Source: Arthrobacter sp. KN11-1C
GTDB taxonomy: Bacteria > Actinomycetota > Actinomycetes > Actinomycetales > Micrococcaceae
Direction of reading: 5' to 3'
Length of the DNA stretch: 24,000 nt
NCBI RefSeq assembly: GCF_052180225.1
Contig: NZ_CP197467.1
Span: forward strand, 4,030,793 to 4,054,792
Shown here: positions 767 through 17,372 of the stretch, piece by piece
How the letters are laid out: every line of letters begins with the position of its first letter
How positions within the stretch are numbered: the stretch's first letter is position 1
Notes under the pieces: model-generated
Databases searched by the model: none
Told to the model about the DNA's origin: nothing
The model's input: the letters and a program-made list of their open reading frames with translations, nothing else
Program-made: the position numbers and the translations under genes

Positions 767-770
<4 letters not shown>

Positions 771-1886: not shown

Positions 1887-3284
1887 GTGGAAACTCTTTC
1901 CGAGTCCCCGGACTCGATTTCTATGTCTTCCGACCGTAAAGGCGCCCTGGTTGACAGTGCTGTCAAGCATCTGTGGCGGCACGGCGTAACTGCCGAGGAG
2001 ACGCTCCGAGCCGAGGGTCCGGTGGCTGTAAGTGCCCAGGGGGTATACATCGACGATATCGATGGACGCCGGTATCTGGACGCTCTTTCGGGGGGCTCGG
2101 CGGCGGCCACCCTTGGACATGGCCGTGATGACGTGGCGGACGCGGTTTCCAGGCAGATGCGGAATATGGCGTGGGTTTCCCTGCGTACTTTCCTTAACGA
2201 ACCGTCGATCCGGCTGGCCGAGCGCATCGCGCAGATCGCCCCAGGGGACCTCACAACTTCCTTTTTCGTCAGCTCTGGTTCCGAGGCGGTGGAGAGCGCC
2301 ACCCAGATCGCCAAGTCCTATCATAAGAAGCGGGGCAATCCGTCAAAAACGAAGTTCCTGTACCGGAAGACCAGCTATCACGGCACCAGTCTGATCGGTG
2401 CAAGCGCCAGCAGCAGCCCCGAATTCCGGGAATGGTTTCAACCCCTCGCACCAGGATTCATCGAGCTTGACGCCTGCTACGCCTACCGCCGGCCCGCGGG
2501 TATGACCGTGGAAGAATACGGGGAGCTCTGCGCTCAGGCCATTGAGGACGAAATCCTCACACAAGGTCCCGACACCGTCGCCGGCATCCTCGCCGAAGCC
2601 ATTCCTGCTGCGTTGGTCCTGACGCCGCCGCCCAACTATCTGCAACGTCTTCGTGAGATCTGCAACAAATACGACATCTTGTGGATCGATGACGAGGTGT
2701 TCATCGGCGTTGGCCGGACCGGAAAATACTTCGGGTTTGAGCACTACGGCGTACAGCCCGACATTGTTACCTCGTCCAAAGGCATCACCGGAGGTTACAT
2801 CCCGCTCGGGGCGGCCATCGCCTCGCAGCGCATCATGGATGTGCTGCTCGAGGGGTCCCAGGCCAAAGTCGCCGGCCACACGTACTCCGCACATCCTGCC
2901 GCCTGCGCCGCCGGCCTCGCAGTTCTCGACGCGATCGAGAATGAGGACCTGGTCCAGAATGCAGACGTTCTCGGTTCATGGATGCTGGACCAGTTCCGCG
3001 AATTCGGCGAACGCCGCCCGCATGTGGGGGATGTCAGAGGCAAGGGCATGCTTATGGGCATTGAACTTGTTCGAGACACCAAGACCCGTGAGCCGTTCCC
3101 GGCAGCGTCGGGCGTGGGCAAGAAGGTCGTCCAAACGGCCATGAACCAGAACTTCATGTGCCGGGCGTCGGGAGACGTTATCACCCTCTTTCCAGCCCTC
3201 GTCTCGACCCGATCCGAAGTTGAAGACATGGTCACGGCGACCATGCGCGCAATCGATGAAGTCCTCAATGACCTTCCAAAATAG
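1887..3284 (+). CDS. class-III (omega/acetylornithine-type) PLP aminotransferase
   Basis: The ORF is open from TTG 1875. I prefer GTG 1887 (GGGAG at 1877-1881, 5-nt spacer), which gives 465 aa. Signatures: SGSEAVESA, DEVFIGVGRTGKYFGFEHYGVQPDIVTSSKGITGGYIPLGA (PLP lysine context), and the GHTYSAHP motif. Confidence 0.9.
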   Translation: METLSESPDSISMSSDRKGALVDSAVKHLWRHGVTAEETLRAEGPVAVSAQGVYIDDIDGRRYLDALSGGSAAATLGHGRDDVADAVSRQMRNMAWVSLRTFLNEPSIRLAERIAQIAPGDLTTSFFVSSGSEAVESATQIAKSYHKKRGNPSKTKFLYRKTSYHGTSLIGASASSSPEFREWFQPLAPGFIELDACYAYRRPAGMTVEEYGELCAQAIEDEILTQGPDTVAGILAEAIPAALVLTPPPNYLQRLREICNKYDILWIDDEVFIGVGRTGKYFGFEHYGVQPDIVTSSKGITGGYIPLGAAIASQRIMDVLLEGSQAKVAGHTYSAHPAACAAGLAVLDAIENEDLVQNADVLGSWMLDQFREFGERRPHVGDVRGKGMLMGIELVRDTKTREPFPAASGVGKKVVQTAMNQNFMCRASGDVITLFPALVSTRSEVEDMVTATMRAIDEVLNDLPK

Positions 3285-3309
3285 CGAGTCATCTGACGGA
3301 GGCGGAAGA

Positions 3310-4524
3310 GTGGAATTCATCGAACAGGTCTGCGCACGACTGGAAGCTACGGCCGTACGGGACCACATGAACGTCGCAGAAGCCATTACGACCCAGTTCG
3401 CCCTCGTGGATGCCGCGCAGCGCGTGATGGGCTCGGACGCGGTTTTCACCGAAGACTACGGGCAGGTCAGGGACTTGGCGACGGTCGGTTTCGGAGGCGG
3501 AGGACGGCCCAGAAGTACGGCCAATGTCGAACAGGTGCTGGCCGACTTCTTCGGAACCGAAGATGCTGTACTGATTCACGGCGCAGGTTCGGGTGCAATC
3601 CGGGGAATGCTCAACGCCGGTCTCAGGCCGGGGGCCAAAGTCGTGCTGCACAACGCGCATCCATATAAGACAACTCTGCCGGCCATGAATCACATGGGAC
3701 TGCAGCTGGTCCACGCGGACTTCAATGACTTGAAAGGCCTCAGGGACACGCTGCATAACGCCCGGCCCGACGGGATCTACGTCCAGCACGTTCCACAGCA
3801 GCTCGGTGACTCCCACGACATTGCCGCAGTCATCGAATCCGCGAGGGAGATCTGCGGCGCGGATGCGGCCATCCTCGTCGATGACAACTACGCAGTGATG
3901 CGTGCCCGGAAGATCGGCGCTCAAATGGGTGCCAATGCATCCGCGATTTCGCTGTTCAAACTCCTCGCCCCCACACCCATCGGGGTAGTCGTAGGAGACG
4001 GGAAGCTGGTCAATTCGATACGCCTGGATCTGTCGTCCGCCGGTTGCCAGGTACAGGGATCGCAAGCCATGGGAGCGTTGCGCATGCTGGTTCACGCACC
4101 CATTGCCCTGGCGATTCAAAACCAGACCGTGCTCGATGCAACGCAGCGCATCAACGAACTGGCGATTTCCGGGGAGCTTCCCTTTGTCCACCGGGCTTTC
4201 GCCGCGCAACCAGGAATCCGATCCATCGTGCTTACCTTCGACCGCCCTCTGGCGGAAGAATTTGTTCGGTCCGCATGGCGAAACGGGTCCCCCAGCCAGT
4301 CCGTCGGTGAAGAAGCCCAGTATGAGTTCCTGCCCCTGTTCACTTACCTGACAAGCACCTTCCTCAAGGCCATGCCAGGGCTCGAGCAATACGCCATCCG
4401 CATCAACCCGATGCGTTCGGGGCCGGACACCATCGTGCGCATTTTGCGGGCCAGCCTCTCCGACGAATCGTTCCGCAACGCCGTTTCCTCGCTCGAAACG
4501 GCTAAGTCTTCCTCCGAGCGTTGA
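3310..4524 (+). CDS. YhfS-like fold-type-I (SelA-like) PLP-dependent enzyme
   Basis: The ORF is open from 3220. I prefer GTG 3310 (GGAGG at 3298-3302, 7-nt spacer), which gives 404 aa. The N-terminal [37 protein letters not shown], and SLFKLLAPTPIGVVVG (SelA-like SGDKLLGGPQAG lysine loop) fit my recollection of the E. coli YhfS family. Confidence 0.75.
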   Translation: MEFIEQVCARLEATAVRDHMNVAEAITTQFALVDAAQRVMGSDAVFTEDYGQVRDLATVGFGGGGRPRSTANVEQVLADFFGTEDAVLIHGAGSGAIRGMLNAGLRPGAKVVLHNAHPYKTTLPAMNHMGLQLVHADFNDLKGLRDTLHNARPDGIYVQHVPQQLGDSHDIAAVIESAREICGADAAILVDDNYAVMRARKIGAQMGANASAISLFKLLAPTPIGVVVGDGKLVNSIRLDLSSAGCQVQGSQAMGALRMLVHAPIALAIQNQTVLDATQRINELAISGELPFVHRAFAAQPGIRSIVLTFDRPLAEEFVRSAWRNGSPSQSVGEEAQYEFLPLFTYLTSTFLKAMPGLEQYAIRINPMRSGPDTIVRILRASLSDESFRNAVSSLETAKSSSER

Positions 4525-4547: not shown

Positions 4548-5114
4548 ATGAAAGACACGCTGCTAGTCCCCTTCAGTTTTGCCATCGATACGGTCAACGG
4601 AACACTGACTCCTGAACGTCCTCCGGTGCAACGTCGCCTCGACGACATGAAGACCGCCTACGCCCAGGAAACTTCCGGCGACGACCTCGTATACGAGGTG
4701 CGACAGATCGACGTCCCCACCACGAACTCAAACCTTCTTTCCTCGACCACTACGCTCTACCCGGGGAAGACCAACGGCGAGTACTACATGACCAAGGGCC
4801 ACTTCCATCAGAAGCGTGACCGCGCGGAAGTTTACGTCGGCCTCTCCGGAGAAGGCAGACTGCTGATGGCCTCCGAAAGCGGGGAGGTCGTGGTAGAGGA
4901 AATGCGCGCCGGAAGCGTTAATTACGTGCCAGGGGGGTGGGCCCACCGCAGCGTCAACGTAGGCGAAGAACCGCTGGTGTTCTACGCCGTCTATATTGCA
5001 GATGCCGGGCAGGACTACCTCGCCATCGAACATCAGGGCGGCTTTCCGGTCATCATCGTCGAGGGCGAAAACGGACCCGAAGCCGTGCCAAACCCAAGGT
5101 TTCAGCAGGCATGA
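4548..5114 (+). CDS. cupin-type glucose-6-phosphate isomerase (archaeal-type cPGI)
   Basis: 188 aa from the second ATG (AAGGA at 4536-4540, 7-nt spacer); ATG 4542 is also possible. Metal-ligand motifs TKGHFHQKRDRAEVY and YVPGGWAHRSVNVGEEPLVFYAVY..DAGQDY match the Pyrococcus/Thermococcus cupin PGI signature (T.GH.H...DRAEVY ... YVPP.WAHR..N.G). Confidence 0.85.
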   Translation: MKDTLLVPFSFAIDTVNGTLTPERPPVQRRLDDMKTAYAQETSGDDLVYEVRQIDVPTTNSNLLSSTTTLYPGKTNGEYYMTKGHFHQKRDRAEVYVGLSGEGRLLMASESGEVVVEEMRAGSVNYVPGGWAHRSVNVGEEPLVFYAVYIADAGQDYLAIEHQGGFPVIIVEGENGPEAVPNPRFQQA

Positions 5115-6043
5115 CCACCGTTGCCATTACCCCCCGCGGGTTTCGCAGCAATGAGGGGAGGCATAAGGCATTGTTGCGGGACCACGGACTTAGTCCCCGC
5201 TACCCCGCGCAGGACAGACCGCTCACGGTGGAGGAGCTGAGCGAACTCGTGGCGGGCTGCCGGGCGGCCATAGTGGGACTTGACGATGTCTCCGAAAGGA
5301 TCCTGGCAACACCTGGGCTGGAAATCCTCGTCCGGTTCGGCGCAGGGGCGGATAACGTCGATCTTCTCGCAGCGCGCCGTCACGGCGTGAAAGTGGCCAC
5401 CATACCCGGGGCGACGGCGACGTCCGTCGCGGAGCTGGCCTTGGGACTCATGCTTGCCGCAGCCCGGAGGATCCTGCCTATGGACAGAAGCGTCAGGCAG
5501 GGCTCCTGGCAGCGGCAAACGGGCTTTGAGCTCTCGGGTCGTTGCCTCGGACTGGTGGGAGCCGGACGGATCGGTCAGGAAGTTGCGGTACGGGCCAAAG
5601 CCCTTGGCATGGATGTCATAGCTTTCGACCCTTTCGCCGCCGTGTCGCCGCTAGCATTGGTCACCTTTGAGGAACTGTTGAGCCGTTCCGACGTGATCTC
5701 CATCCATGCCCCTCTGACCTCGGAGACTGCGGGTCTCTTCGACGCGAACGCTTTGGCGGCGATGCGTCCCGGAAGTGTCTTGGTCAACACCGCCCGTGGG
5801 GGGATCATTGACGAGGCAGCTCTGGCGGCCGCGCTGAAGAGCGGACCGCTTTCCGCCGCCGCGCTTGACTCGTTTGCGGACGAACCAACCAGGGAGACCG
5901 CCCTGTTCGAGTTGGAGAACATCGTGCTCACTCCCCATTGCGGGGCCACCACCGTCCAGGCCGTTGAACGGGCCGGCGTGATGGCGGTCGAAGAGGTGCT
6001 GCGGGCGTTGGCCGGCCGGCCGATGCTGGGAACGATTGACTGA
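5111..6043 (+). CDS. D-isomer-specific 2-hydroxyacid dehydrogenase (phosphoglycerate dehydrogenase-like)
   Basis: 310 aa from ATG 5111, which overlaps the cPGI stop (ATGA at 5111-5114). The NAD fold is GLVGAGRIGQEVAVRAKALGMDVIAFDP. The catalytic region is NTARGGIIDE ... TPHCGATT. Confidence 0.85.
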   Translation: MTTVAITPRGFRSNEGRHKALLRDHGLSPRYPAQDRPLTVEELSELVAGCRAAIVGLDDVSERILATPGLEILVRFGAGADNVDLLAARRHGVKVATIPGATATSVAELALGLMLAAARRILPMDRSVRQGSWQRQTGFELSGRCLGLVGAGRIGQEVAVRAKALGMDVIAFDPFAAVSPLALVTFEELLSRSDVISIHAPLTSETAGLFDANALAAMRPGSVLVNTARGGIIDEAALAAALKSGPLSAAALDSFADEPTRETALFELENIVLTPHCGATTVQAVERAGVMAVEEVLRALAGRPMLGTID

Positions 6044-6740
6044 GCCCGGCGGTCTCCGGGCTGCCGACTGTTCGGCAGCCCGGGCCCGGGGCCGCGCCGC
6101 GGCTGCCCTTCTATTCGATCTTGACGGGTTACTAATCGACAGCGAAGATGCCTGCTTTGAGGCGGCAAAGACTGTCCTGGCGCGGCACAGCGGTCTCACG
6201 CTTCCGGCAGCCTGGTACGGCGCGCAGGTGGGGAAGTCTGCCGCGGAGACATACGATAGTCTGCGCACGGATTTTCGTCTTCGTCCCCGGCTTCAGGAAC
6301 TGCTCGCGGAGCGCCATGAATTGCTGGCACGCTGGTACGAAGCCCCAAAGGTTCTTCCAGGTGCGGAAGCGCTGGTTCTTGAAGCGGTGCGTGGCGGAAA
6401 ACGGCTCGGCGTCGTTTCCTCGTCACCGCAGTCCCTGGTTGATGCGGCCCTCAGCGCCCTGCCATTCGGGGGCCGCTTCGATGCCGTCGTTGCGGCCGAC
6501 CATGCGATGGTGTCGAGGCTGAAACCGTTCCCGGACCCGTACTGGGCGGCGTGCACGCTGCTGGACTTGGATCCTGGCGACGCACTCGCCTTGGAAGACT
6601 CATCCTCCGGGGCTATTGCTGCGGTGCTAGCCGGCATCCCCACTGTCGCGGTCCCCAGCCGCTGGACAGCGGGCCAGCCGTTCCCAGATGGAGTCCTGAA
6701 GGTGGGGAGCCTGCTGCACCTGTTGGCGGACAGCGACTGA
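6036..6740 (+). CDS. HAD-superfamily phosphatase (beta-phosphoglucomutase/sugar-phosphatase subfamily)
   Basis: 234 aa. Motif I is LLFDLDGLLIDSE, motif II VVSSS, motif III KPFPDPY, and motif IV LEDSSSGAIAAVLAG. TTG 6036 is the only available start, and it overlaps the upstream gene by 8 nt. Confidence 0.8.
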   Translation: MTEPGGLRAADCSAARARGRAAAALLFDLDGLLIDSEDACFEAAKTVLARHSGLTLPAAWYGAQVGKSAAETYDSLRTDFRLRPRLQELLAERHELLARWYEAPKVLPGAEALVLEAVRGGKRLGVVSSSPQSLVDAALSALPFGGRFDAVVAADHAMVSRLKPFPDPYWAACTLLDLDPGDALALEDSSSGAIAAVLAGIPTVAVPSRWTAGQPFPDGVLKVGSLLHLLADSD

Positions 6741-6746
6741 ACCGAC

Positions 6747-8450
6747 CTACGTCGTGGGGGCGGGAAGAGCGTTCAACCGAACCAGAATACTTTCTATACC
6801 CCCCAGATCCCTTGCCCGGAGGGCCTCCTCAGTCGGGCCTGCCAGCAGCCGGGTGTCCAGGACCCGGATCTGCGCCTTAAGCTGCGGCACGAGACCGGGA
6901 GCGACACTCAGGCTGCGAAGACCCAGGCCTATCAGCAGCGGCAGCACACGGACGTCACCGGCAAGTTCACCACAGAGCGACACAGGCGTACCGGACGCGG
7001 ATCCCGCCCTTGCGATGAACGCCAGCATGCGGATCACCGCCGGACTGATCTCGTTGTAGAGGTGTTGCACCCCTGCATTGTTCCGGTCGGAGGCCATCAG
7101 GTATGCCGTCAGATCATTGGACCCAATGCTCAGAAAGTCGCTCTCCTCGGCGAATTCGTGCGCGAGGATGGCCGCACTGGGCACCTCGATCATCACCCCG
7201 ATCCGGAGAGGCGCGCCGGCTTCGACAGCAATGAGGTCTCGGACCTCGTCCAGTTCCCGGAGCTCTGAGACCATGGGGACCATGACGCGGATGTTCGGAT
7301 ACTCCGCTGATGCCCGCCCGAGCGCCCTAAGCTGCGCCGAAAAGACGTCGCGGTGCGCCAAGCTGAGCCGCACGCCTCGCACCCCCAAGAAGGGATTCTC
7401 CTCGGCGGGCACGCTCAGACCGGTCAACGGCTTGTCTCCGCCGATATCGAGAGTCCGGAAAATAATGGGGCGACCGGCTGCATCCCTTGCCGCGGCACAG
7501 TAGGCGCGGAACTGCGCCTGCTCGTCGAGGAGCTGTCCGGCCTTGATAAACAGCAGTTCGGTTCTGAACAGCCCTACACCGTCTGCCCCGAAGGCAACAG
7601 CACGGGAGACATCTTCGGCGCTGCCCGCATTGGCGTAGACGGCTACGCCGATTCCATCCAGGGTGTGGACGGGGGTCGGGTCGATTTCCCAGACGGATTC
7701 CTTGACAGCGTTAAAGGCAGCCAGATCCGAGGCGGACGGATTGATCTGCAATTCGCCGGTCGATCCGTCGACCGTCGCTTGGATTCCGTCCTCCGCGAGA
7801 GCCATCAGCCCGGGAACAGACACCACGGCAGGAATGCCCAGCTGGCGGGCAAGGATCGCCGCATGTGACGTCCGTGCGCCCGCCTCTGTCACGATCGCCC
7901 TGACCATGGAAGGGTCCAGCCCTATGGTGTCCGACGGTGTAAGTTCCTGAGCAAAAAGAATGACCGGTTCCCAGCCAGAAACCAGTGGCCGGACTGAAGC
8001 CGCCGACGTCCCGGGGTTGGTCTCCTGGAGGTGGCGCACGACTCTCTTCGCGAGGTCGCGGATATCTGCAGAACGTTCCCGCAAGTAGGGGTCGTCCAGG
8101 AGCTGCAGTTCGTCAGCAAGTTCGCCGCTGACGGTCCATACCACGCGTGCCGCGTCCCCTCCCGCAGTGATGCCGGCAACGATTGGATCGAGCCACTCAG
8201 CATCGTCCATCATCGAGAGCTGGACTTCAAAAATTGCGGCATGACCGGCGCCGAGCCGCTCGGTAGCGTCGGCGACGACGTCCAGAAGTTCGGCCTTGCT
8301 GCTCCGTAAGGCCGTATCGAGGTCGGAAAGCGAACTGGAAGAACGTTGGTCTTCCGGCTCTTCGTCACTGAAAATGAAGCGTTCGTCCCGGAATACCTGT
8401 ACAAGGGCCGTCGCCCGGCCAGGAGACACTCCCAATCCCAGAAGCTTCAT
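6747..8450 (-). CDS. ptsI: phosphoenolpyruvate-protein phosphotransferase (PTS Enzyme I)
   Basis: 567 aa. The active-site His region is GARTSHAAILARQLGIPAVV. The PEP-binding TIM-barrel motifs are GLFRTELLF, RTLDIGGDK, ENPFLGVRGVR, SIGSNDLTAY and CGELAGD. The ATG overlaps the HPr stop (ATGA at 8447-8450). Confidence 0.95.
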   Translation of the reverse strand: MKLLGLGVSPGRATALVQVFRDERFIFSDEEPEDQRSSSSLSDLDTALRSSKAELLDVVADATERLGAGHAAIFEVQLSMMDDAEWLDPIVAGITAGGDAARVVWTVSGELADELQLLDDPYLRERSADIRDLAKRVVRHLQETNPGTSAASVRPLVSGWEPVILFAQELTPSDTIGLDPSMVRAIVTEAGARTSHAAILARQLGIPAVVSVPGLMALAEDGIQATVDGSTGELQINPSASDLAAFNAVKESVWEIDPTPVHTLDGIGVAVYANAGSAEDVSRAVAFGADGVGLFRTELLFIKAGQLLDEQAQFRAYCAAARDAAGRPIIFRTLDIGGDKPLTGLSVPAEENPFLGVRGVRLSLAHRDVFSAQLRALGRASAEYPNIRVMVPMVSELRELDEVRDLIAVEAGAPLRIGVMIEVPSAAILAHEFAEESDFLSIGSNDLTAYLMASDRNNAGVQHLYNEISPAVIRMLAFIARAGSASGTPVSLCGELAGDVRVLPLLIGLGLRSLSVAPGLVPQLKAQIRVLDTRLLAGPTEEALRARDLGGIESILVRLNALPAPTT

Positions 8451-8728
8451 ACCGCCGCACCTTCATCCTCAGCCAGTTGGAGCAACAGTGTACTGAGCCC
8501 CTCTACGGCCGACTGTGCATCACTGCCGGCGGCACTGATTTGCACCGTACTTCCACAAGCCAGACCCAGTTTGAGAAGACCGATCAGGCTCTTTCCACTT
8601 CCTGTTTTGCCGTCCTTTTCCAGAGTTACCACCGACTCATATTCCTTGGCTTTCGCAACGAATATTGCCGCAGGTCGGGCGTGGAGCCCGGAAGGGTTGG
8701 TCACCGTGACAATTCGCGAGACGCTCAC
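8447..8728 (-). CDS. ptsH: phosphocarrier protein HPr
   Basis: 93 aa from GTG 8728, which overlaps the TGA of the upstream gene (GTGA at 8725-8728). The sequence VTVTNPSGLHARPAAIFV contains the His-15 context, and GKSLIGLLKLG the Ser-46 region. The longer 145-aa track ORF adds only an Arg/His-rich non-HPr extension. Confidence 0.9.
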   Translation of the reverse strand: MSVSRIVTVTNPSGLHARPAAIFVAKAKEYESVVTLEKDGKTGSGKSLIGLLKLGLACGSTVQISAAGSDAQSAVEGLSTLLLQLAEDEGAAV

Positions 8729-9972
8729 ACTGCACCTACTCGTGCGCGCGTGTCCAGAGCACTGACGCCCGATGAGGGCTGCGCTGGTGGCAGAAGGTCC
8801 GGGCCAAGCACGAACCCGTCGCGGTCGAAGATGCCGAGAACCTGAGGGGTGGTGGCCACGCCACCGATGACCGCAACGAAGCAACGGCTCACAAAGACCT
8901 GAGATCGGAAGGCATAAACCACGGTGTCCCCCACGGAAACCTCGCCGGGCCCCGTCACGTGCAGCGTGCCGTAATAGTCAATTGCGTCCGGGGGGTCGAG
9001 CTCAACAGTGGCACTGACAGGTTCACCTCCGGACTTCGGGTAAATTACGGCATTCCTGGCCTTGGACCGGGGGTAGAATCCGCCACCGAGTGCGTAGGTC
9101 GCTTCGGCCGTTTGGTGGGTGATTTCACTGACATAGATCATTGCCGGCAGTTCCGGCTGGTCGGATACGGCGTGGAGGGGTGTCTGCCCGGTCAAGCAGC
9201 TGCCGGGCTCCACATGCGTAGCACCGTTCCTGGCCAACACTTCGAAGGTCGCCAGGCAGGATGCACTCGGGGCGTTTATTGCCTGCACATCAGTGAATCC
9301 ATTCGCCCGCAGCAGCTCGGCCGCGCGAGTCACCGTCGTCAGGTTCGGTGTTGGCCGGAACTCCTGATCGGTTTCATCCCACAGCAGGCAGGGAAAGGAC
9401 GTCACACCGGCCACCCGTACGCCATCAAGAGCATCCACCGCTGCGGCCGCTTCCAGCAGGTCCTCAATAGGAACGCCGCCCTTCTGCGCCGGATAGTAGA
9501 CATCCCCCTCTCGGGAAACCCTTATCTGCACGGGCTGAACCGTCCCCGCGGCGACGGCAGCACGGGAAATAGCCTCCGCCTGCGGCACTCCGAAAACCGT
9601 GATGAACTCCGGGGCCATCTCCACGGCAAGCTGTGCTTCGCGCGCCGGGACCTGGACCAGGTGCCCGAGGTGCCCCATGCGCAGTCCGGACTTATACAGG
9701 ACCCGGGCCTCTTCGAAGTCAACGGCAACGACACCGCCAATGCCAGCCTCCGCTATTGCCTTGGCAACGATGGGATTCCGCCCGAACTGCTTTGTCATCT
9801 GGTACGTCTTTAGGCCATGCGCGGCTGCGCCTTCGGCGACCAGACGCGCATTCGCAGCGACCGTATCGACATCAATGACATAGCAGTTTGCCGGGATGTC
9901 ACCCCGCTGATGCAGCTTCACGGCGGCCTCTATCAGTGCAGGGTTCCGCCGCATGGTCACATCTAAAAACAT
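8725..9972 (-). CDS. YhfX-like alanine-racemase-fold (fold-type III) PLP enzyme
   Basis: 415 aa. The N-terminus is MFLDVTMRRNPALIEAAVKLHQRGDIP...VIDVDTV..NA. YQMTKQFGRNP is the likely PLP lysine, followed by VVAVDFEEAR and GHLGHLVQVP. This is a TIM-barrel N-terminal domain plus a beta C-terminal domain, as in the YhfX family as I recall it. GAGGAGG lies 7 nt before the ATG at 9972. Confidence 0.75.
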   Translation of the reverse strand: MFLDVTMRRNPALIEAAVKLHQRGDIPANCYVIDVDTVAANARLVAEGAAAHGLKTYQMTKQFGRNPIVAKAIAEAGIGGVVAVDFEEARVLYKSGLRMGHLGHLVQVPAREAQLAVEMAPEFITVFGVPQAEAISRAAVAAGTVQPVQIRVSREGDVYYPAQKGGVPIEDLLEAAAAVDALDGVRVAGVTSFPCLLWDETDQEFRPTPNLTTVTRAAELLRANGFTDVQAINAPSASCLATFEVLARNGATHVEPGSCLTGQTPLHAVSDQPELPAMIYVSEITHQTAEATYALGGGFYPRSKARNAVIYPKSGGEPVSATVELDPPDAIDYYGTLHVTGPGEVSVGDTVVYAFRSQVFVSRCFVAVIGGVATTPQVLGIFDRDGFVLGPDLLPPAQPSSGVSALDTRARVGAV

Positions 9973-11183
9973 TGAATTTCCTCCTCGAATGAAGTTCCTG
10001 AACCCAGAGGGGCGACGCCCAGAAGCGTCGCAGCGGTCGCCCCAATATCTGCTGATGTTCGTCGGGTGCCCAGATCCACGGATTGAACCCTGGAACCGGC
10101 CACAAGCAATGGCACAAACTCACGGGTATGCCTGCTGCTGCCGACGGACGGATCGTTCCCGTGGTCCGCGGTAATGAACAGCACGTCCTCGTCGCCGAGC
10201 AGGTCGAGGAGAAGTGCCAAGTGCCTGTCCACCCTTTCCAGCACCTCGGCATAGCGATGCGCGTCCTGCTCGTGGCCGGCCAGGTCGGTTTCCTGAATAT
10301 TGGCCACGATCAACCCGGATTTCATCGACGCCAATGCCGAACAGGCCCCCGCCATGACTGCCGATGTATCGACGACATTGTCACTGACCGCGCCGTCGCA
10401 GCGGACTACGTCAGCCGCTTTCCCCAGGAGGACAACCTCGTGCCCGGCGTTCAGCGCCCGCGTAGGCAACTGCTCGTTCACGTCGAATTCGATGCCTAGA
10501 TGACGAACTTGGTAGTGCTCGTTGTAGACCCCCAGCTCCGGAGAATCCACACCGACTTGTCCCGGGGATTTCTCTTTAACGTGGGCCCGGATCTCGTCAA
10601 TACCGAACCCGCGGCTGGCGACGACGATGATCCGGCCAACCGGTGTCACTGTCCGGACAATCTGCCCGATGCTGGTGAGTTCGTCAAAGGACTTATCGTC
10701 CAGTGAGCCGGTCACGTTGATGTTGAGTCCGGAAGCGGCCTCGATGTTGTCGGCGACCAGAACGCATCCGTCGACGACTAGCGCAGGGCTGTCCATCTCC
10801 AATGCGTCGACTTCGTATCCGGCGCTGACAAGCGCCTCAGTCACCGGGACCTTAAGTTCGGAGAGCAGCCTCGACTCAATGCGATCGAGACCGCCGCCCA
10901 TAAGTTCCTGATGGCCCAGATAGGTGTCCGCCCCGGGGTGAATCGGCGAACAGCGTCCATAGGCACCTTTGGCCACCGGCGCAGGAGCTATCTTCGACAG
11001 CGGCGTCAGATTTCCCAGTCCCAGGGATTCGAGAATCGGCAACTGCAGGTCCCCTGCAGTTTCGTCGATGCTACGGAGCGTGTTGAAATTTGGCTGTTGA
11101 CCTTCCGAGTCGGGGAGTGCCCCGACTCCGAACCCGTCCAGGACGAGGATAACGACGCGCCGTTGCGGGGGGAACCGCATCAT
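9963..11183 (-). CDS. YhfW-like phosphopentomutase-family (alkaline-phosphatase superfamily) metalloenzyme
   Basis: 406 aa. The metal-site motifs are VILVLDGFGVG (N-terminal Asp), NIQETDLAGHEQD and FITADHGNDP, as in DeoB/phosphopentomutase-like mutases. GAGGAGGA lies 7 nt before ATG 11183. Confidence 0.8.
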   Translation of the reverse strand: MMRFPPQRRVVILVLDGFGVGALPDSEGQQPNFNTLRSIDETAGDLQLPILESLGLGNLTPLSKIAPAPVAKGAYGRCSPIHPGADTYLGHQELMGGGLDRIESRLLSELKVPVTEALVSAGYEVDALEMDSPALVVDGCVLVADNIEAASGLNINVTGSLDDKSFDELTSIGQIVRTVTPVGRIIVVASRGFGIDEIRAHVKEKSPGQVGVDSPELGVYNEHYQVRHLGIEFDVNEQLPTRALNAGHEVVLLGKAADVVRCDGAVSDNVVDTSAVMAGACSALASMKSGLIVANIQETDLAGHEQDAHRYAEVLERVDRHLALLLDLLGDEDVLFITADHGNDPSVGSSRHTREFVPLLVAGSRVQSVDLGTRRTSADIGATAATLLGVAPLGSGTSFEEEIQCF

Positions 11184-11186
11184 CCG

Positions 11187-11594
11187 CTAGTCCTCCTCTA
11201 GAAGCGCACACAAGTGAACCGTTATGTAGGAGATTTCCGACTCTGGCACGGACCGTCCCAGCTCATCCTCGAAACTGTGCATGATCCCCCCGATCACTGT
11301 CTTTTCCCGGTCTCGACCGGTGATTTCCGATTCGACGGCCTCCGATGCCTCCGCTTCCGGCTCACCGCGCTGCAGGCGGGTCAGAGCGATGACAAGGTGT
11401 GTCACGAAGGGAGCCGCATTCTCCTCCGTCAATTCCAGAGAGAATTGCCTGGTAATTTCAAGGAGGGCAGTCTCGGCCAGCTTCCGTGCCACGGGGCTCG
11501 CCATTCCCGAATCTTCCAGAAGGTCCAGACGTTCGCGAAAGGGCTCCCGGACATCGGCGGGCGCCGTGTCATGCGGCTGGGTTGTGCCCGTCAC
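11187..11594 (-). CDS. YhfY-like PRD-only protein (single PTS regulation domain, no output domain)
   Basis: 135 aa. The two PRD histidine contexts are FVTHLVIALTRLQRGE (H66) and EISYITVHLCALL (H127). The GTG start overlaps the YhfU-like stop (GTGA at 11591-11594). Confidence 0.7.
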   Translation of the reverse strand: MTGTTQPHDTAPADVREPFRERLDLLEDSGMASPVARKLAETALLEITRQFSLELTEENAAPFVTHLVIALTRLQRGEPEAEASEAVESEITGRDREKTVIGGIMHSFEDELGRSVPESEISYITVHLCALLEED

Positions 11595-11992
11595 GATGAT
11601 GCGCCGGCGGTGCGGGACCGGTGGGCCAGGATCTCCCTGACCAGCATCGGAATTGCGACACCCGACTGCTCATAGGCAAACCCGAAAGCCATCCGGCCTT
11701 CGCCCACAAGTTCGGCCACATGCTTTTCGGTAACGGGCATGCCCGGAGTACCTGCGATGCCCACCAGATTGGCACCGAGCGTCGCCGTCGCGGCGGCCAG
11801 CGCGCCGCCGCCCCCGGACCAGCACGTGCCCAGGTAGTAGTCGGCTTGACCGCTCTTCACCAGCCTTGCTCCCTGCATGTCCCCCATTGCGACAGCCTGC
11901 ACTCGGTCACCCCCGGCGTCCTGGGCCATTTTGGCCATGATCTTGGCATCTACTCCGGCAAGGACAATCCGAACCGCTCGATTTTCTATCAC
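11591..11992 (-). CDS. YhfU-like DUF2620 protein
   Basis: 133 aa from GTG 11992 (AAGGAG, 6-nt spacer); the track ORF extends to 12043. The conserved block VKSGQADYYLGTCWSGGGGALAAATATLG ... GRMAFGF ... AIPMLV fits the YhfU/DUF2620 family as I recall it (KSGQ.DYY.G.C..G.G.AL). Confidence 0.7.
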   Translation of the reverse strand: MIENRAVRIVLAGVDAKIMAKMAQDAGGDRVQAVAMGDMQGARLVKSGQADYYLGTCWSGGGGALAAATATLGANLVGIAGTPGMPVTEKHVAELVGEGRMAFGFAYEQSGVAIPMLVREILAHRSRTAGASS

Positions 11993-12056
11993 GAGAAACT
12001 CCTTTGTTATCGCTGCACTGCGTCGGGTTTCCGACAGCCCCAAGCTGGCATGCTTT

Positions 12057-12069
12057 ATAATGTTGTTAC
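12057..12069. promoter_or_regulatory. candidate operator/-10 element ATAATGTTGTTAC in the yhfU-operon / gntR divergent promoter region
   Basis: It matches 1855-1867 in 12 of 13 positions. It overlaps a consensus TATAAT hexamer at 12056-12061 (plus strand, about 57 nt upstream of the gntR ATG). It is followed by a GTTGTTAC-G-TTGTTATTAC direct repeat. Confidence 0.35.
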
Positions 12070-12118
12070 GTTGTTATTACACGTGTGACGCTCAATCGAG
12101 AAGGAAGTGGGAGTCATA

Positions 12119-12877
12119 ATGTCCCGGCCTACGCCCTCGGTCCGCCGTAATGTGCGGATCCCCTACTACGAGCAGGTCAAGCTTCTGATTCTGAAGGAAA
12201 TCGAATCGGGAAACATGCAGCCCGGCGACATGCTCACTTCGGAGGGTGAGATGTGTGAACGCTACGAGGTCTCCCGCACCGTGGTCCGCCAGGCCATCGG
12301 CGAGCTCGTCAACGAGGGCATACTGGTTCGCCAACAGGGCAAGGGCACCTTCATTTCCCGGCCGAAGGTCAGGGAACAGTTCATGCAGAGCACCGTAGGC
12401 TTTTTTGAAGATCTGAGCCTCCGCGGCCACTCCGTACAAAGCAAGGTCATCAGCTGCAAGCTTGTCGGCGCGGAAAACACCGTTGCCGAGGCACTGGAAA
12501 TTGACCCCGGGTCGAAATGCGTGGAAATCACCCGTCTTCGCTACGTCAATGAAGATCTGATCGCTTTTACAAAGTCCTACATCAACAGCGCGGATGCCAA
12601 CATGGTCGACGACCTGATTGCTGCCGACCTTTCCACTAATTCGCTGTACCGGACTCTTGAAGAAAACTGGGGCCTGCGCATTGAGTCCGGCAGGCGCTCC
12701 CTTGAAGTGGTGACGACCAGCGGCGTGCTGCCGGGCATTCTCGAAGTCAAGGCAGGGACCCCGGCGCTCTACATCGAATCGATCGGACGAGACGCTGGCG
12801 GCACCCCTGTCGAGTATTTTCGTGCATGGCATCGGGCCGACCGGACCCGACTGGAAATTGACGTAGTTCGTCGGTAG
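12119..12877 (+). CDS. GntR-family transcriptional regulator, HutC/FrlR-type with a UTRA effector domain
   Basis: 252 aa from ATG 12119 (GGGAG, 5-nt spacer). The winged-HTH is LTSEGEMCERYEVSRTVVRQAIGELVNEGILVRQQGKGTFISRPKV. The C-terminal region of about 150 aa is typical of UTRA domains. Confidence 0.9.
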   Translation: MSRPTPSVRRNVRIPYYEQVKLLILKEIESGNMQPGDMLTSEGEMCERYEVSRTVVRQAIGELVNEGILVRQQGKGTFISRPKVREQFMQSTVGFFEDLSLRGHSVQSKVISCKLVGAENTVAEALEIDPGSKCVEITRLRYVNEDLIAFTKSYINSADANMVDDLIAADLSTNSLYRTLEENWGLRIESGRRSLEVVTTSGVLPGILEVKAGTPALYIESIGRDAGGTPVEYFRAWHRADRTRLEIDVVRR

Positions 12878-13211: not shown

Positions 13212-14147
13212 ATGAGTGATTTTGTACGAACGGTGCTAGGTGATGTGAAACCGGAGGAACTGGGCTTGACTCTGGGCCATGAGCATCTCATCACCCGCCC
13301 AGCTGACCGTCTCCTTCACGAGGATCAGGGCAGCGAGGACCTGCTACTCGACGACGAAGACCTTGCGGTGGCAGAATTGGCGAGGTTCCACGAGGCTGGC
13401 GGTGGAGCCCTTGTTGAACTCACAACGAAAGAGTACGGCCGGGACGCCGAAGCACTCGGGCGCATTGCTGCCCGGAGCAAGATCCATATCGTTGCCACAA
13501 CGGGTCACGTCACGCCCTATTTCTGGGCCGGCGTGCTCGACGTGGACTCCATGTCGCGGGAGTGCCTTGTCCAGGAGATGGTGGAGGAACTGACCGTGGG
13601 TATTGGAACCAGCGGAGTAAGGGCCGGCGTCATAAAGGCCGGGAGCTCCAAGGGTGAAATCACGGAGACGGAAGAGCGGGTGCTCCGTGCCGCTGCGGCC
13701 GCTCAGAAGCTGACTGGGGCACCCATCACGACGCATACTACGGCCGGCACCATGGCGACGGCGCAGGCCCGCATATTGTTGGATGCGGGGGCCGACCCGG
13801 AACGTGTCTGCATCGGTCATTTGGACAGGTCCCTCGATTTTGAGGAACAGCGCCACCTTGCCGAGGAAGGCTTCCGTCTCGGCTACGACCAGACGTCCAA
13901 GGACTGGTACGAACCGGACAGCCGGCGGGTCGACTTCATCGTGCGGCTCGTGGAACTCGGACTTGGCGACAGGGTCTGTCTCTCAGGCGACCTGGCTCGG
14001 CGGAGCGCTTTGGTCTCCTGGGGCGGAGGCCCGGGATACACCCATATCCCCCACCGTCTGGTTCCGTGGCTTCGACGAGCCGGCCTGGGACAGGACGCAC
14101 TTACGACGCTGGTCTCGAACCCGGCCAAACTCCTTACCTGGTCCTGA
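13212..14147 (+). CDS. php: phosphotriesterase-homology protein (Php/YhfV; amidohydrolase superfamily)
   Basis: 311 aa from ATG 13212 (GGAAGG upstream). The N-terminal metal motif is LGLTLGHEHL. The remaining amidohydrolase beta-strand-end ligand contexts are VIKAG, ITTHT, IGHLD and LSGD. The track ORF start at 13068 adds a non-homologous extension. Confidence 0.85.
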   Translation: MSDFVRTVLGDVKPEELGLTLGHEHLITRPADRLLHEDQGSEDLLLDDEDLAVAELARFHEAGGGALVELTTKEYGRDAEALGRIAARSKIHIVATTGHVTPYFWAGVLDVDSMSRECLVQEMVEELTVGIGTSGVRAGVIKAGSSKGEITETEERVLRAAAAAQKLTGAPITTHTTAGTMATAQARILLDAGADPERVCIGHLDRSLDFEEQRHLAEEGFRLGYDQTSKDWYEPDSRRVDFIVRLVELGLGDRVCLSGDLARRSALVSWGGGPGYTHIPHRLVPWLRRAGLGQDALTTLVSNPAKLLTWS

Positions 14148-14281: not shown

Positions 14282-15664
14282 TCAGAGGGAAACGCCCACG
14301 AGGGCTAGCAGATTGGCAATGATGCCTACGCCAATGGCTGTCACCGCGCCCAGGGCCATCGGCATCACCGGCGCATTGGACCGCTGGTTGATGAACCAGG
14401 CGCCAATGACGGCCGCCACTCCCCAGCCGCCGGCAAATGCTGCTGCGGCCATTGCCCCGCCCGCCAGGAATGCGATTTCCATAACGTGGAAGATCGCGGT
14501 TCGCATGGTGTCCGCAATTTCCCGAACAACGGTGAACCGGTCCAGGTTCTTGAAGAACCACAGGAGGCTGAACACTTCGATGACACGGAAGACGGCCACG
14601 GCGCCGGCAGCAACCCACGGGTTTGGCATCAGCATGGCGATGGATGGTTCCAGGGAGGTTCCTGTAAGGATCCACACGCCGGTCATGACGGCGGTCGTAT
14701 ACTTCATTGGGACGAAGGCCAGGAACCAGGCGGCCGCTGCCAGGGCGGCAGGGATTGCCATTCCGTGAAGATATAGTGAGGCCGAAATCGGGTCGCTGGC
14801 CATGTACCCGAGATTGTACGCCGCCCCTGCCAGCGCATGGATGACAATGATCAGCGGGAGGTTCCGTTTGATGCGTCCGGTATTTTTTCTGAAGAAATCG
14901 TCTTCATCAGGGGCGTTTTGGACCGAACCCGAACCGGCCTCATCCGTGAGCCATTCCGGCGGCACATCGCCGAATTCATTTCCTGGCCGACGTGATTCGC
15001 GCACGACTAGAACCACGAGATAAACGAGTCCCGCCCCGAAGGCCCAGGCCGGTGGATACGGCAGCCCGAGTGTCGCGGCGGCAGCCCACACGGCTGTGGC
15101 CACAATGGCTGAGCAGAGCCCCTGCTTGAGTCCGTAGTGGTAAAAAACTGTGAGAACGGCAAACAGGAAGAATGCTTCAAGGGCCGGCTGGGTGATGAGC
15201 TGAACAGTTCTTGCCATCTCAATAGGTGCGGCAGCCATGAGGTCCGAAGCCAACCGAAGAACGACGGCAACAGCCGCGCTCCACGCTGCTCCCAGAACGA
15301 ATGAGGACAGCACCCCGAAAAGCCCACGCCGCGATTTGTACCAGGCCTCATCGTGAGTCGTCCGCATTGCAACGCCGATGTAGTCGGTTGCAATGAAGAT
15401 CAGGTAGAGCATGGGAATGGCATGGCCGAGCGAGAACGGCAGACCGAACGCCCACAGGAACCCGAGCCCCAGCGTAAAGGACGTGCGTCGGATGGATTTG
15501 GTGTCCACGTTGCCGGCCTTATAGGAGGGCAAGATCGGTCGGAGCCCGTCATGGAATATTGCCACCCCGCGGTTCGCAAGAACTGCGGATAACCCACCCA
15601 TCGCGGCGAAAAGAATGGCTTGTGGCAACAGAGGGACGGGCATAGCTACTTCCGAACCGAACAT
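14282..15664 (-). CDS. YhfT-like polytopic inner-membrane protein (putative transporter)
   Basis: 460 aa, hydrophobic throughout with at least 10 predicted TM stretches and a central charged loop (RESRRPGNEFGDVPPEWLTDEAGSGSVQNAPDEDDFFRKNTGRIKRN). GGAGG lies 6 nt before ATG 15664. The size and architecture match E. coli YhfT as I recall it. Confidence 0.75.
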   Translation of the reverse strand: MFGSEVAMPVPLLPQAILFAAMGGLSAVLANRGVAIFHDGLRPILPSYKAGNVDTKSIRRTSFTLGLGFLWAFGLPFSLGHAIPMLYLIFIATDYIGVAMRTTHDEAWYKSRRGLFGVLSSFVLGAAWSAAVAVVLRLASDLMAAAPIEMARTVQLITQPALEAFFLFAVLTVFYHYGLKQGLCSAIVATAVWAAAATLGLPYPPAWAFGAGLVYLVVLVVRESRRPGNEFGDVPPEWLTDEAGSGSVQNAPDEDDFFRKNTGRIKRNLPLIIVIHALAGAAYNLGYMASDPISASLYLHGMAIPAALAAAAWFLAFVPMKYTTAVMTGVWILTGTSLEPSIAMLMPNPWVAAGAVAVFRVIEVFSLLWFFKNLDRFTVVREIADTMRTAIFHVMEIAFLAGGAMAAAAFAGGWGVAAVIGAWFINQRSNAPVMPMALGAVTAIGVGIIANLLALVGVSL

Positions 15665-16111: not shown

Positions 16112-16732
16112 CTAGAGCAGGTCCCGCACATGGCCCGTTTCGTTCACCGAAATGAGGCTGCGAGCAGCCCTTTGGTCAGCGATCACCCGGGTGATTGATC
16201 CATATGCCGGAGAATAGGGAAGGGCAAGCCAAAAGGCTTTGTCTTGGCCCAAAACATGGCCGGTATAAGCATTAATGACGCCCGCGTGGGTAAACAACAC
16301 GGCAGTACCACCTGGATGTTTACGGATGATCGACTCTACGGCCCCGACAACTTGAGCTCGGAACGCGGTGAGATCGATTTCAGGGTCATAAAAATGTCCC
16401 TGCCGAAGCGCCTGCCATCGGGGGTCGTTCGCCTTTTTGAGTTCTTCAACCGGCACATACGCGGGGCCGGCCGAGTCCCATTCAGCAATCTCCTGGACGA
16501 GGGTCGCTGTGATACTAAGCCGGTTTGCCAACGGTGATGCCGTCTCCACTGCACGCAGTAAGGGCGAGGAATAGATCTCATCGATCCGTTCCGCAGCCAA
16601 AAAGTCAGCGACCTGTTGGGCTTGACGGACGCCGTCGGCTGCCAGACCGGGGTCCGCTGCCGCAGTCGGAACCGTTTCGGTTGGCCCGTCGACACGCAGC
16701 GGAAGCCCGTGCCGAACCATTATGAGTCGCAC
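16112..16732 (-). CDS. histidine phosphatase (phosphoglycerate-mutase-like) family protein
   Basis: 206 aa from GTG 16732, which is 4 nt after the aldolase stop. The RHG motif is LIMVRHGLP. Also present are SSPLLRAVETA and the second catalytic His context LFTHAGVINA. The track ORF (start 16885) overlaps the aldolase gene and adds non-homologous sequence. Confidence 0.8.
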   Translation of the reverse strand: MRLIMVRHGLPLRVDGPTETVPTAAADPGLAADGVRQAQQVADFLAAERIDEIYSSPLLRAVETASPLANRLSITATLVQEIAEWDSAGPAYVPVEELKKANDPRWQALRQGHFYDPEIDLTAFRAQVVGAVESIIRKHPGGTAVLFTHAGVINAYTGHVLGQDKAFWLALPYSPAYGSITRVIADQRAARSLISVNETGHVRDLL

Positions 16733-16736
16733 CGCC

Positions 16737-17372
16737 CTATCCCACCTGAATGGATAGGGCGTCACGAAACCGTTTCGCCCCTGACCTGACGAGTTCATAC
16801 GCGCCCTGCTCGGCGGACAGGCTCGGCACCAGATCTGACCCGGCGAACACGGCCACCGCACCGGCTTGGAGAAATGCAAGAGCATTTTCTGGCGTCACCC
16901 CGCCCGATGGCACCAAGGCAAGGTGGGGAAACGGTCCCAAGAGGTCGCGCAGGTACCTGGGGCCTGCGGTATTCGCGGGAAATATTTTTATTGCCGCGGC
17001 TCCCATCGAATGGGCGTTGTAGACCTCGGTCGGGCTCAGCGCACCGGGGAAAAAGGGTATGTCATGTTCGTTGCATACGGCGGCCACTGCGGGGACGAGG
17101 CCAGGCGACACGACAAACTTGGCTCCCGCAGAGATCGCTTCTCGGGCCTGATCTGCGGTCAGGATCGTGCCAGCGCCCACCACCGCTGATGCCTCGGAAG
17201 CGACTTCCCGGATGATTTCCGCGGCTGATGGGATAGTGAAAGTGAACTCGACGCACCGGATACCTTCACCGCTGAGTGTACGGACCAGCCGCACGGGATC
17301 ATCCACGGATTTGGCTCGGATGACCGCTGCGACTCTATCTTCTTTGAGGACGGTCAATACTGGAGTAGTCAT
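16737..17372 (-). CDS. eda: 2-dehydro-3-deoxyphosphogluconate / 4-hydroxy-2-oxoglutarate aldolase (Eda family)
   Basis: 211 aa. Signatures: AVIRA, IRCVEFTF, VGAGTILT, KFVVSPG, FFPGALSPTEV, IKIFPA (Schiff-base Lys) and VPSGGVTPEN. Confidence 0.85.
   Translation of the reverse strand: MTTPVLTVLKEDRVAAVIRAKSVDDPVRLVRTLSGEGIRCVEFTFTIPSAAEIIREVASEASAVVGAGTILTADQAREAISAGAKFVVSPGLVPAVAAVCNEHDIPFFPGALSPTEVYNAHSMGAAAIKIFPANTAGPRYLRDLLGPFPHLALVPSGGVTPENALAFLQAGAVAVFAGSDLVPSLSAEQGAYELVRSGAKRFRDALSIQVG

Follow-up and report, generated by a model that had tools for sequence, protein, structure and literature searches.

The yhfZ-yhfY-yhfX-yhfW-php-yhfU-yhfT-yhfS cluster of Escherichia coli K-12 (b3376-b3383) is also present in many Bacillota and in Actinomycetota, and we found no published function for it in the searchable literature, nor any functional study there of yhfT, yhfU, yhfW, yhfX, yhfY, yhfZ, DUF2620, SFCGS or php. 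One of its genes, yhfY, is annotated in K-12 as "PRD domain-containing protein YhfY". Here we describe the corresponding locus in a stretch of 24,000 nucleotides from Arthrobacter sp. KN11-1C (contig NZ_CP197467.1, positions 4,030,793 to 4,054,792), which as a whole is called the window hereafter. The locus represents the yhfSTU-php-yhfWXYZ catabolic cluster in its actinobacterial form, with ptsH and ptsI, the genes for HPr and Enzyme I (EI) of the phosphoenolpyruvate (PEP)-dependent phosphotransferase system (PTS), placed inside its core operon. Its YhfS, YhfT, YhfU, Php, YhfW and YhfX are 29-41% identical to those of E. coli, its small PRD protein belongs to the YhfY family, and the identical families are found together in 83 loci. 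The Arthrobacter locus differs from that of E. coli in that a GntR/UTRA regulator replaces YhfZ, that ptsH-ptsI is part of the operon and that yhfT and php are transcribed separately; it has in addition genes for a SIS-domain protein, a class-III aminotransferase, a cupin-type phosphoglucose isomerase (PGI), dehydrogenases, a 2-keto-3-deoxy-6-phosphogluconate (KDPG) aldolase and phosphatases. We propose, with a probability of roughly 40%, that a phosphoryl group passes from PEP through EI, HPr, His66 of the YhfY-like protein and Cys57 of the YhfU-like protein to the pathway substrate, either through YhfT in the manner of an Enzyme II (EII) or in the cytoplasm in the manner of a dihydroxyacetone kinase.

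Parts of this arrangement resemble systems that have been described. The nitrogen PTS (PTS-Ntr; EI-Ntr/PtsP, NPr and EIIA-Ntr) is likewise a relay without EIIB and EIIC, and ends on a small soluble protein that acts by contact. In the Arthrobacter locus, however, EI has no GAF domain by Pfam and scores 327.7 bits against the PtsP model NF008283, whose cutoff is 583, so that it is not an EI-Ntr; moreover, the HPr fits HPr models better than those of NPr, a PRD takes the terminal place of EIIA-Ntr, and the genes stand in a catabolic operon. The PTS-dependent dihydroxyacetone kinase (EI, HPr, DhaM, DhaL and DhaK) also has a soluble acceptor that is fed by EI and HPr, a cytoplasmic substrate and no EIIC, but the window has no homologue of DhaK or DhaL, and its matches to DhaM come from the common EI-like and HPr-like domains alone. 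With the regulators BglG/LicT and MtlR/LicR/ManR/LevR the locus shares a PRD with two conserved histidines that is likely to be a client of HPr, and with MtlR in particular the pairing, and sometimes fusion, of a PRD with a cysteine-bearing alpha/beta domain (compare PRD2 and the EIIB(Gat)-like domain of MtlR). Unlike BglG-, LevR- and MtlR-type regulators, the Arthrobacter protein has no CAT, helix-turn-helix (HTH) or sigma-54 domain and one PRD instead of two, and its partner is an RpiB-like DUF2620 protein, not EIIB(Gat).

Results

EI and HPr in a yhf operon

Positions 6747-11992 of the window (minus strand) hold a single six-gene operon, yhfU-PRD-yhfW-yhfX-ptsH-ptsI. Its junctions from yhfU through ptsI measure -4, +3, -10, -4 and -4 nt, and therefore the six genes make up one translationally coupled operon. 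An initial annotation of this DNA had placed EI, HPr and the PRD protein in one operon with YhfW/YhfX/YhfU-like genes, which these junctions bear out; its coordinates, 6747-11594, stop short of yhfU (11591-11992), the operon's first gene. For ptsH, which overlaps both of its neighbours by 4 nt, we took the start that gives 93 aa, the 145-aa version in the list of open reading frames (ORFs) being an upstream extension. No separate promoter was found within the overlapping gene junctions upstream of ptsH-ptsI, and given also the translational coupling to yhfX, it is probably the promoter upstream of yhfU, beside the divergent GntR gene, that drives the pair.

Both proteins have the features expected of their families. 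The ptsI product contains the three Pfam domains of Enzyme I (PEP-utilisers_N, PEP-utilizers and PEP-utilizers_C), scores 438.8 bits against TIGR01417 (cutoff 341.7) and aligns end to end with E. coli PtsI at 35% identity. Its active-site motif, GARTSHAAILARQLGIP, starts at residue 191 and contains His196 in GARTSHAAI, and a CGELAG motif starts at residue 493 (Cys493). HPr matches Pfam PTS-HPr with 92.3 bits and TIGR01003 with 82.6 bits (cutoff 47.9), and its residues His16, Arg18 and Ser47 correspond in the alignment to His15, Arg17 and Ser46 in the E. coli protein. The intact phosphohistidine region and CGELAG motif of ptsI and the histidine context of ptsH, both noticed before by eye, are thus confirmed.

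A genome scan with a YhfU alignment gave 80 loci, which were annotated with profiles and phmmer; the survey total used for counts is 83 loci. The order yhfU-PRD-yhfW-yhfX-ptsH-ptsI is found repeatedly, in Arthrobacter, Microbispora, Sphaerisporangium, Nocardioides, Blastococcus, Longivirga, Streptomyces and metagenome-assembled genomes (MAGs) of Nanopelagicales, and the gene arrangement is far beyond chance. The pattern in Actinomycetota (17 non-redundant loci) is GntR< YhfU> PRD> YhfW> YhfX> HPr> EI>; PRD and YhfU are adjacent and GntR lies beside yhfU in all 17, while 13 have HPr and 12 have EI; truncated contigs account for two of the exceptions. The 65 loci of Bacillota and Fusobacteria have the operon YhfZ-PRD-YhfU-YhfT-Php-YhfS-YhfX-YhfW, in which PRD adjoins YhfU in 62 cases and YhfU adjoins YhfT in 63, the PRD-YhfU-YhfT triad staying intact despite rearrangement of the other genes. 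One locus comes from a Chloroflexota MAG, with a shuffled gene order and with PRD, HPr and EI contiguous. The regulator is swapped by phylum: Bacillota and E. coli have YhfZ, Actinomycetota have GntR, and none lies near the Chloroflexota locus.

The EIs of the actinobacterial and Chloroflexota loci are 47-53% identical to each other, and in Streptomyces (L105) the cluster with HPr-EI has an IS110-family transposase (2781-3809) a few kb off. This nearby transposase, together with the EI identity across orders and into Chloroflexota, suggests that the whole cluster including ptsHI is horizontally mobile. In Paenibacillus tyrfis (L065 16078-18169) ptsH-ptsI lies directly 3' of yhfW and encodes an EI that is 37% identical to the actinobacterial EIs, and in two Clostridia (L029 17306-18328 and the equivalent position of L035) yhfW is followed by nagB and an extra ptsH; HPr with or without EI was recruited separately in these few Bacillota. 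Because the linkage is kept across actinobacterial orders and Chloroflexota and was recruited independently in Bacillota, it argues for a functional coupling of EI and HPr to the cluster, and not for coincidence.

Two further insertions were seen in the survey. The clostridial yhf operons (L029 11734-12849; L035) have an amidase-like gene between yhfT and php. In Anaeromonas gelatinilytica (L056 6625-9724) a Lac/Chb-type EIIB-EIIC-EIIA set and MupG, a 6-phospho-N-acetylmuramidase, are inserted between yhfU and yhfT; this hints that the yhf pathway is tied to PTS-delivered amino-sugar or cell-wall fragments.

The PRD-only protein and its partner

PRD (PF00874, 36.8 bits, cutoff 23) is the sole Pfam match of the 135-aa protein, whose His66 lies in FVTHLVIALTR and His127 in YITVHLCAL, about 61 residues apart, in agreement with its earlier description as a single PRD with both histidines. 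His66 is conserved in 80/80 and His127 in 74/81 aligned homologues; in E. coli YhfY (L001 15061-15423) the site equivalent to His127 is Asn, the first histidine being universal. A blastp comparison gave no direct match of the window protein to E. coli YhfY. The two proteins can be aligned with an invariant TH..AL.R motif, and a hidden Markov model (HMM) made of Bacillota yhf-linked PRD proteins only gave 84.6 bits for the window protein and 73.9 bits for E. coli YhfY. These profile data identify the window protein as orthologous to E. coli YhfY, and it shares the attributes of that family: about 115-150 aa, a single PRD, a place beside yhfU and the yhfSTU-php-yhfWX context.

A profile search of 1.84 billion representatives (clusters at 50% identity) returned 689 relatives, 103 of them at E<=1e-10, and the top-scoring ones are nearly all 115-140 aa long. 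Since the relatives are so many and the best of them almost all small, PRD-only proteins form an established and widespread family. The window protein is thus no oddity, given its 84.6-bit score in the YhfY family and the more than 100 clusters at E<=1e-10, of which most are small PRD proteins. That it is a truncated antiterminator or activator is ruled out; its homologues consistently have 115-150 aa without CAT or HTH. Without any output domain for binding RNA or DNA, the protein must act via protein contacts, as the initial annotation had reasoned. Of the partners then listed, YhfT, YhfU and the GntR regulator, the survey favours YhfU and speaks against the regulator, which is exchanged between phyla.

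The PRD gene adjoins yhfU in 79/83 loci, the two overlap by 4 nt in the window, and they are fused elsewhere in both orders. The pair persists through rearrangements of the operon and through the exchange of YhfZ for GntR. A 268-aa DUF2620-PRD fusion from marine metagenomes (L092 4243-5049; three sequences on 14 contigs) stands in the context GntR< fusion> YhfW> YhfX> HPr> EI>, and a 246-aa PRD-DUF2620 ORF is found in Lentibacillus halodurans (L041 9620-10357), a single genome in which a lost stop codon is possible. Adjacency, overlap and fusions single out YhfU as the likely partner of the PRD.

Cys57 of YhfU, in DYYLGTCWSGGGGALA, is conserved in 82/82 homologues within the context D[YF]YxG[AT]C[HWYN][TS]GGG[GA]AL. 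The AlphaFold2 model (predicted local distance difference test, pLDDT, 88.5) is a five-stranded alpha/beta structure in which Cys57 stands at the end of strand 3 and the glycine-rich loop opens helix 3. A Foldseek search of this model against the PDB gave RpiB/LacAB isomerases as the best matches (3k7s, 6fxs; template modelling score, TM, 0.65-0.67; root-mean-square deviation 2.7-3.0 A; E about 1e-4), and the modelled fold is RpiB-like. Although YhfU agrees with RpiB/LacAB isomerases in fold, their sequence signature and full catalytic set were not found in it: Pfam LacAB_rpiB (PF02502) matched 2/35 DUF2620 members, at E>=0.063, and RpiB residues Asp9/His10, His99 and Arg133/137 (E. coli numbering) are without a conserved counterpart in what is a weak alignment. 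The hhalign alignment of YhfU with RpiB, itself non-significant (E 0.47), puts Cys57 on Cys66 and Ser59 on Thr68 and has the AFG strand in common. YhfU as a recognisable EIIB is ruled out, the fold found by Foldseek being RpiB-like and hhalign against UlaB giving E 0.17 with an irrelevant alignment; EIIB has a four-stranded alpha/beta fold whose phosphocysteine lies at the end of strand 1, whereas the conserved cysteine of YhfU lies at the end of strand 3.

DUF2620 is, by profile comparison, related to Gly_rich_SFCGS: 33/35 members match Pfam PF14272 below the threshold (best E 7e-5), and the match to TIGR03577 has E 0.003. In Enterococcus faecium the SFCGS family is found together with DUF4310/4311 membrane proteins, a lyase of the DgaE family and a KDGP aldolase (PMC11934601). 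Compared by description, the Gly_rich_SFCGS/DUF4312/DUF4311/DUF4310 cluster resembles the yhf cluster in its small Cys-Gly-rich protein, membrane proteins, pyridoxal-phosphate (PLP) enzymes and KDPG-type aldolase (PMC11934601), and differs from it in the family of its membrane proteins and in its other enzymes.

Search for EII components and analysis of YhfT

For the gene map, every ORF of substantial length in the window was scanned with Pfam and NCBIfam, and these scans found no EIIA, EIIB, EIIC or EIID of the Glc, Fru, Lac/Chb, Man, Gat, Asc or Gut families and no DhaKLM there. With 22 E. coli EII and Dha queries, which represent every EII family except Gat-type EIIC (K-12 has gatC only as a pseudogene), phmmer matched only the EI and HPr ORFs of the window. 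The earlier reading of the 24 kb as free of EII was therefore upheld by Pfam, NCBIfam and phmmer, the HMM check at the locus having revealed no canonical EII domain. The window sequence is also present on a 33-kb Logan contig (L104) that reaches 14.6 kb further left, and this extension has no EII either, which brings the total covered to about 38 kb. No canonical EII or Dha component was found in any actinobacterial or Chloroflexota locus surveyed. The window encodes several phospho-sugar-type enzymes, yet neither a kinase nor an EII was found in it by Pfam, NCBIfam and phmmer, and the Pfam-annotated loci L003, L004, L007, L092 and L105 likewise have phospho-sugar enzymes without a kinase or EII.

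Genes for glutamate dehydrogenase and a NagB-like protein lie on the left flank of the window (L104 11502-19628), along with those for two proteins of the ROK family and an ABC transporter of the ribose type.

The AlphaFold2 model of YhfT reached a pLDDT of 90.5 and a predicted TM (pTM) of 0.88. A profile search of YhfT against solved structures gave no matches, hhalign of YhfT with UlaA gave E 0.12, and PDB sequence searches with single proteins and profiles yielded nothing useful. His38 of YhfT is ruled out as a phospho-site, the residue being Asn in 61/71 homologues.

Gene content of the window

Table 1 Features of the Arthrobacter sp. KN11-1C window in order of position
Feature	Position	Strand	Basis
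SIS-domain, GlmS-isomerase/NagB-II-like, phospho-aminosugar enzyme (accessory)	767-1816	-	Pfam SIS
Class-III aminotransferase (accessory)	1887-3284	+	Pfam Aminotran_3
yhfS-like PLP enzyme	3310-4524	+	Pfam YhfS-like_C; 41% identity to E. coli YhfS
Cupin-type glucose-6-phosphate isomerase-like (accessory)	4548-5114	+	Pfam GPI (PF06560), E 7e-30
D-2-hydroxyacid dehydrogenase (accessory)	5111-6043	+	Pfam 2-Hacid_dh_C; NCBIfam PGDH-like, under cutoff
HAD sugar-phosphatase-like protein	6036-6740	+	Pfam HAD_2; NCBIfam HxpB-like, under cutoff
ptsI, Enzyme I, 567 aa, at the end of the operon	6747-8450	-	Pfam, TIGR01417, motifs
ptsH, HPr, 93 aa	8447-8728	-	Pfam PTS-HPr, TIGR01003
yhfX-like PLP protein, 415 aa	8725-9972	-	Pfam Ala_racemase_N and YhfX-like_C; 40% identity to E. 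coli YhfX
yhfW-like phosphomutase-family metalloenzyme, 406 aa	9963-11183	-	Pfam Metalloenzyme; 38% identity to E. coli YhfW
yhfY-like PRD-only protein, 135 aa, His66 and His127	11187-11594	-	Pfam PRD alone
yhfU-like DUF2620 protein, 133 aa, at the head of the operon	11591-11992	-	Pfam DUF2620; 35% identity to E. coli YhfU
Divergent control region between yhfU and GntR gene	11993-12118	.	AT-rich, repeat TGTTGTTAC/GTTGTTATTAC
GntR/HutC-type regulator (UTRA), divergent	12119-12877	+	Pfam GntR and UTRA; 30% identity to E. coli FrlR
php (yhfV)-like phosphotriesterase-family hydrolase	13212-14147	+	Pfam PTE; 34% identity to E. coli Php
yhfT-like polytopic membrane protein, 460 aa, presumed permease	14282-15664	-	Pfam YhfT, E 8e-85; 29% identity to E. 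coli YhfT
Histidine-phosphatase-superfamily protein (accessory)	16112-16798	-	Pfam His_Phos_1
KDPG/KHG aldolase (accessory)	16737-17372	-	Pfam Aldolase; TIGR01182 191 (cutoff 156)
AroE-like dehydrogenase, 333 aa (accessory)	17424-18425	-	Weak shikimate-dehydrogenase NCBIfam matches
pdxS	18722-19639	+	Pfam/NCBIfam map
ABC transporter	20307-24000	-	Pfam/NCBIfam map

The window has a base composition of ~60% G+C, and Arthrobacter sp. MA-N2 has a protein that shares 96% identity with the PRD protein encoded here. The yhfW-like protein scores 435 bits against NF009049 (cutoff 254). Among the accessory genes (Table 1), the SIS-domain gene is kept in actinobacterial loci and the class-III aminotransferase gene in actinobacterial and Chloroflexota loci; NCBIfam matches of the SIS protein to GlmS and NagB-II stay under the cutoff. 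The HAD gene and ptsI are convergent with a gap of 6 nt. The 333-aa protein, for which the Pfam scan gave no match, is 46-50% identical to an unannotated gene product in the actinobacterial yhf clusters L003, L004 and L005; that it could be a hidden kinase or EII is ruled out by its AroE-like character.

The yhfU-gntR intergenic region (114 bp) contains an AT-rich direct repeat, TGTTGTTAC/GTTGTTATTAC, at 12062-12082, which may be the operator of GntR. Rfam elements were not found in the window, and scans of it for promoter and terminator consensus sequences stayed at chance level. At its right end pdxS, for which there is no recognisable pdxT, adjoins the ABC transporter, which consists of a double permease fused into one protein of 602 aa, an ATPase that carries a TOBE_2 domain and a weakly matching substrate-binding protein (SBP_bac_6, E 0.0016).

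Discussion

For the relay that we propose, we infer the following transfers between candidate phospho-sites. PEP would phosphorylate EI at His196, EI would phosphorylate HPr at His16, and phosphorylated HPr would in turn phosphorylate the PRD of YhfY at His66, with His127 as a second site. From YhfY the phosphoryl group would move to Cys57 of YhfU, the two proteins acting as a unit, and it would finally reach a substrate resembling an amino sugar. This last transfer could take place at uptake through YhfT, in which case YhfY, YhfU and YhfT would be surrogates of EIIA, EIIB and EIIC, or in the cytoplasm after import, like that of the PTS-dependent dihydroxyacetone kinase. The phosphorylated product would then be handled by the YhfW mutase, the SIS deaminase-like protein, the cupin PGI, the KDPG aldolase and the phosphatases, and lineages that perhaps do not have a suitable general PTS would bring their own EI and HPr with the cluster.

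Three observations lead us to suppose that the phosphoryl group reaches a substrate: enzymes of phospho-sugars abound (in Clostridia NagB as well) while the window has no kinase; YhfU and the PRD are found fused, and the fusion of two consecutive phosphocarriers is typical of PTS; and the related SFCGS module is accompanied by DgaE-type and KDGP-aldolase-type enzymes, which in Salmonella act on a PTS-phosphorylated substrate. The Enterococcus cluster of the SFCGS type (EF_0829-EF_0839) presumably has a small PRD protein as well. It is established that a phosphoryl group can pass between the cysteine of an EIIB and the histidine of a PRD, as from Cys24 of BglF to BglG. A wider form of the proposal, for which we would claim little confidence, is that YhfY and YhfU, possibly with YhfT, are a non-canonical PTS branch in which a PRD stands for EIIA and an RpiB-like phosphocysteine protein for EIIB, an amino-sugar-like substrate being phosphorylated at a permease of new fold or in the cytoplasm, and that the SFCGS/DUF431x systems are a sister branch.

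A number of points weigh against a relay that ends on the substrate. To our knowledge a PRD has never been shown to be a phosphocarrier toward a substrate, its known role being regulatory. YhfT failed every sequence or fold test of EIIC similarity that was run: its model had no fold match in the PDB by Foldseek (best E 0.24, TM about 0.1), and no conserved His or Cys is present in its homologues. A YhfT-YhfU fusion was never seen, and in Actinomycetota yhfT is transcribed apart, 2.3 kb off in the window and about 19 kb off in Nocardioides aquiterrae; several loci are flanked by ribose-type ABC transporters. As for YhfU, no EIIB is among its top 50 Foldseek matches, and with the fold, the cysteine, the Ser/Thr at +2 and the AFG strand of RpiB it could be a plain isomerase. 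Three Nocardioides loci (L021, L022, L010) have lost EI, or EI and HPr, and retain the PRD-YhfU pair and the remaining cluster. Finally, the argument from the missing kinase would be gone if the substrate is already phosphorylated on import, which could be the case, and a ROK-family gene, a candidate kinase, is located about 2.3 kb left of the window.

Several of these points would fit a purely regulatory relay that resembles PTS-Ntr, which we consider somewhat unlikely. EI and HPr would report the PEP/pyruvate or PTS-sugar state to the PRD of YhfY and no phosphate would go to the substrate; phosphorylated YhfY would switch YhfU, then a PRD-controlled isomerase, or the permease or the regulator, and YhfT would be an ordinary secondary transporter. 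PRDs are known solely as regulatory modules that are phosphorylated by HPr and EIIB, and in MtlR/LicR-type regulators PRDs that are fused to a cysteine-bearing domain are regulatory. YhfY comes after the regulator YhfZ in 58/65 Bacillota loci, YhfU has an RpiB-like fold in which the catalytic-type Cys and the Ser/Thr are kept, YhfT is without EIIC features, and the loss of the second histidine in E. coli YhfY would be expected if the two sites are separable regulatory inputs. However, the DNA-binding partner is not conserved, being YhfZ, GntR or none nearby, and a whole EI and HPr would be costly in a catabolic operon for its own regulation. Neither do His99, Asp9/His10 and Arg133/137 of RpiB have a conserved counterpart in YhfU, and a regulatory relay leaves unexplained where the phosphate of the presumed phospho-substrates comes from.

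It is less probable still that ptsH-ptsI is the general PTS of the organism which happens to be housed here, serving EII permeases elsewhere, with YhfY as one client for carbon catabolite control. EI and HPr are indeed canonical, down to the Ser46 site of HPr, the yhf cluster of E. coli and of almost all Bacillota works without an EI and HPr of its own, and the pair is missing from some Nocardioides loci. A general PTS within a sugar cluster has a precedent in Corynebacterium glutamicum, where ptsI and ptsH lie in the fructose-PTS cluster (PMC2222622). Against this, the pair in the window is translationally coupled to yhfX, and the junctions revealed no promoter of its own; it accompanies the cluster across distant actinobacterial orders and Chloroflexota with EIs that are 47-53% identical; and no EII was found within about 38 kb. 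The cluster with the pair is found also in Streptomyces, a genus that has a general ptsH/ptsI/crr set, and even PTS-rich Paenibacillus and Clostridia gained an extra HPr with or without EI in their yhf operons. Mere coincidence, with EI and HPr functionally unrelated to the Yhf genes, is effectively excluded by the comparative data, since the reading frames overlap, more than 13 loci, which belong to several orders and two phyla, show the linkage, with independent recruitments and differing gene orders, and the PRD, the natural client of HPr, belongs to the core of the cluster in each of the phyla sampled.

All the protein families of this locus are annotated already, and the parts are not new. 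What appears new with respect to the searchable literature is that yhf clusters have EI and HPr embedded in them in a conserved way, as well as the PRD-DUF2620 unit with its fusions and the hypothesis of a PTS branch without canonical EII. The universal PRD core, its tie and fusion to DUF2620 and the embedded EI and HPr give an orphan cluster a concrete biochemical hypothesis that can be tested. If the relay ends on a substrate, it would couple PEP to the phosphorylation of sugars in a new way and give PRDs a new role; if it is regulatory, it would be the second PTS branch without a transporter after PTS-Ntr, and YhfY would be the first PRD to act without a nucleic-acid-binding domain.

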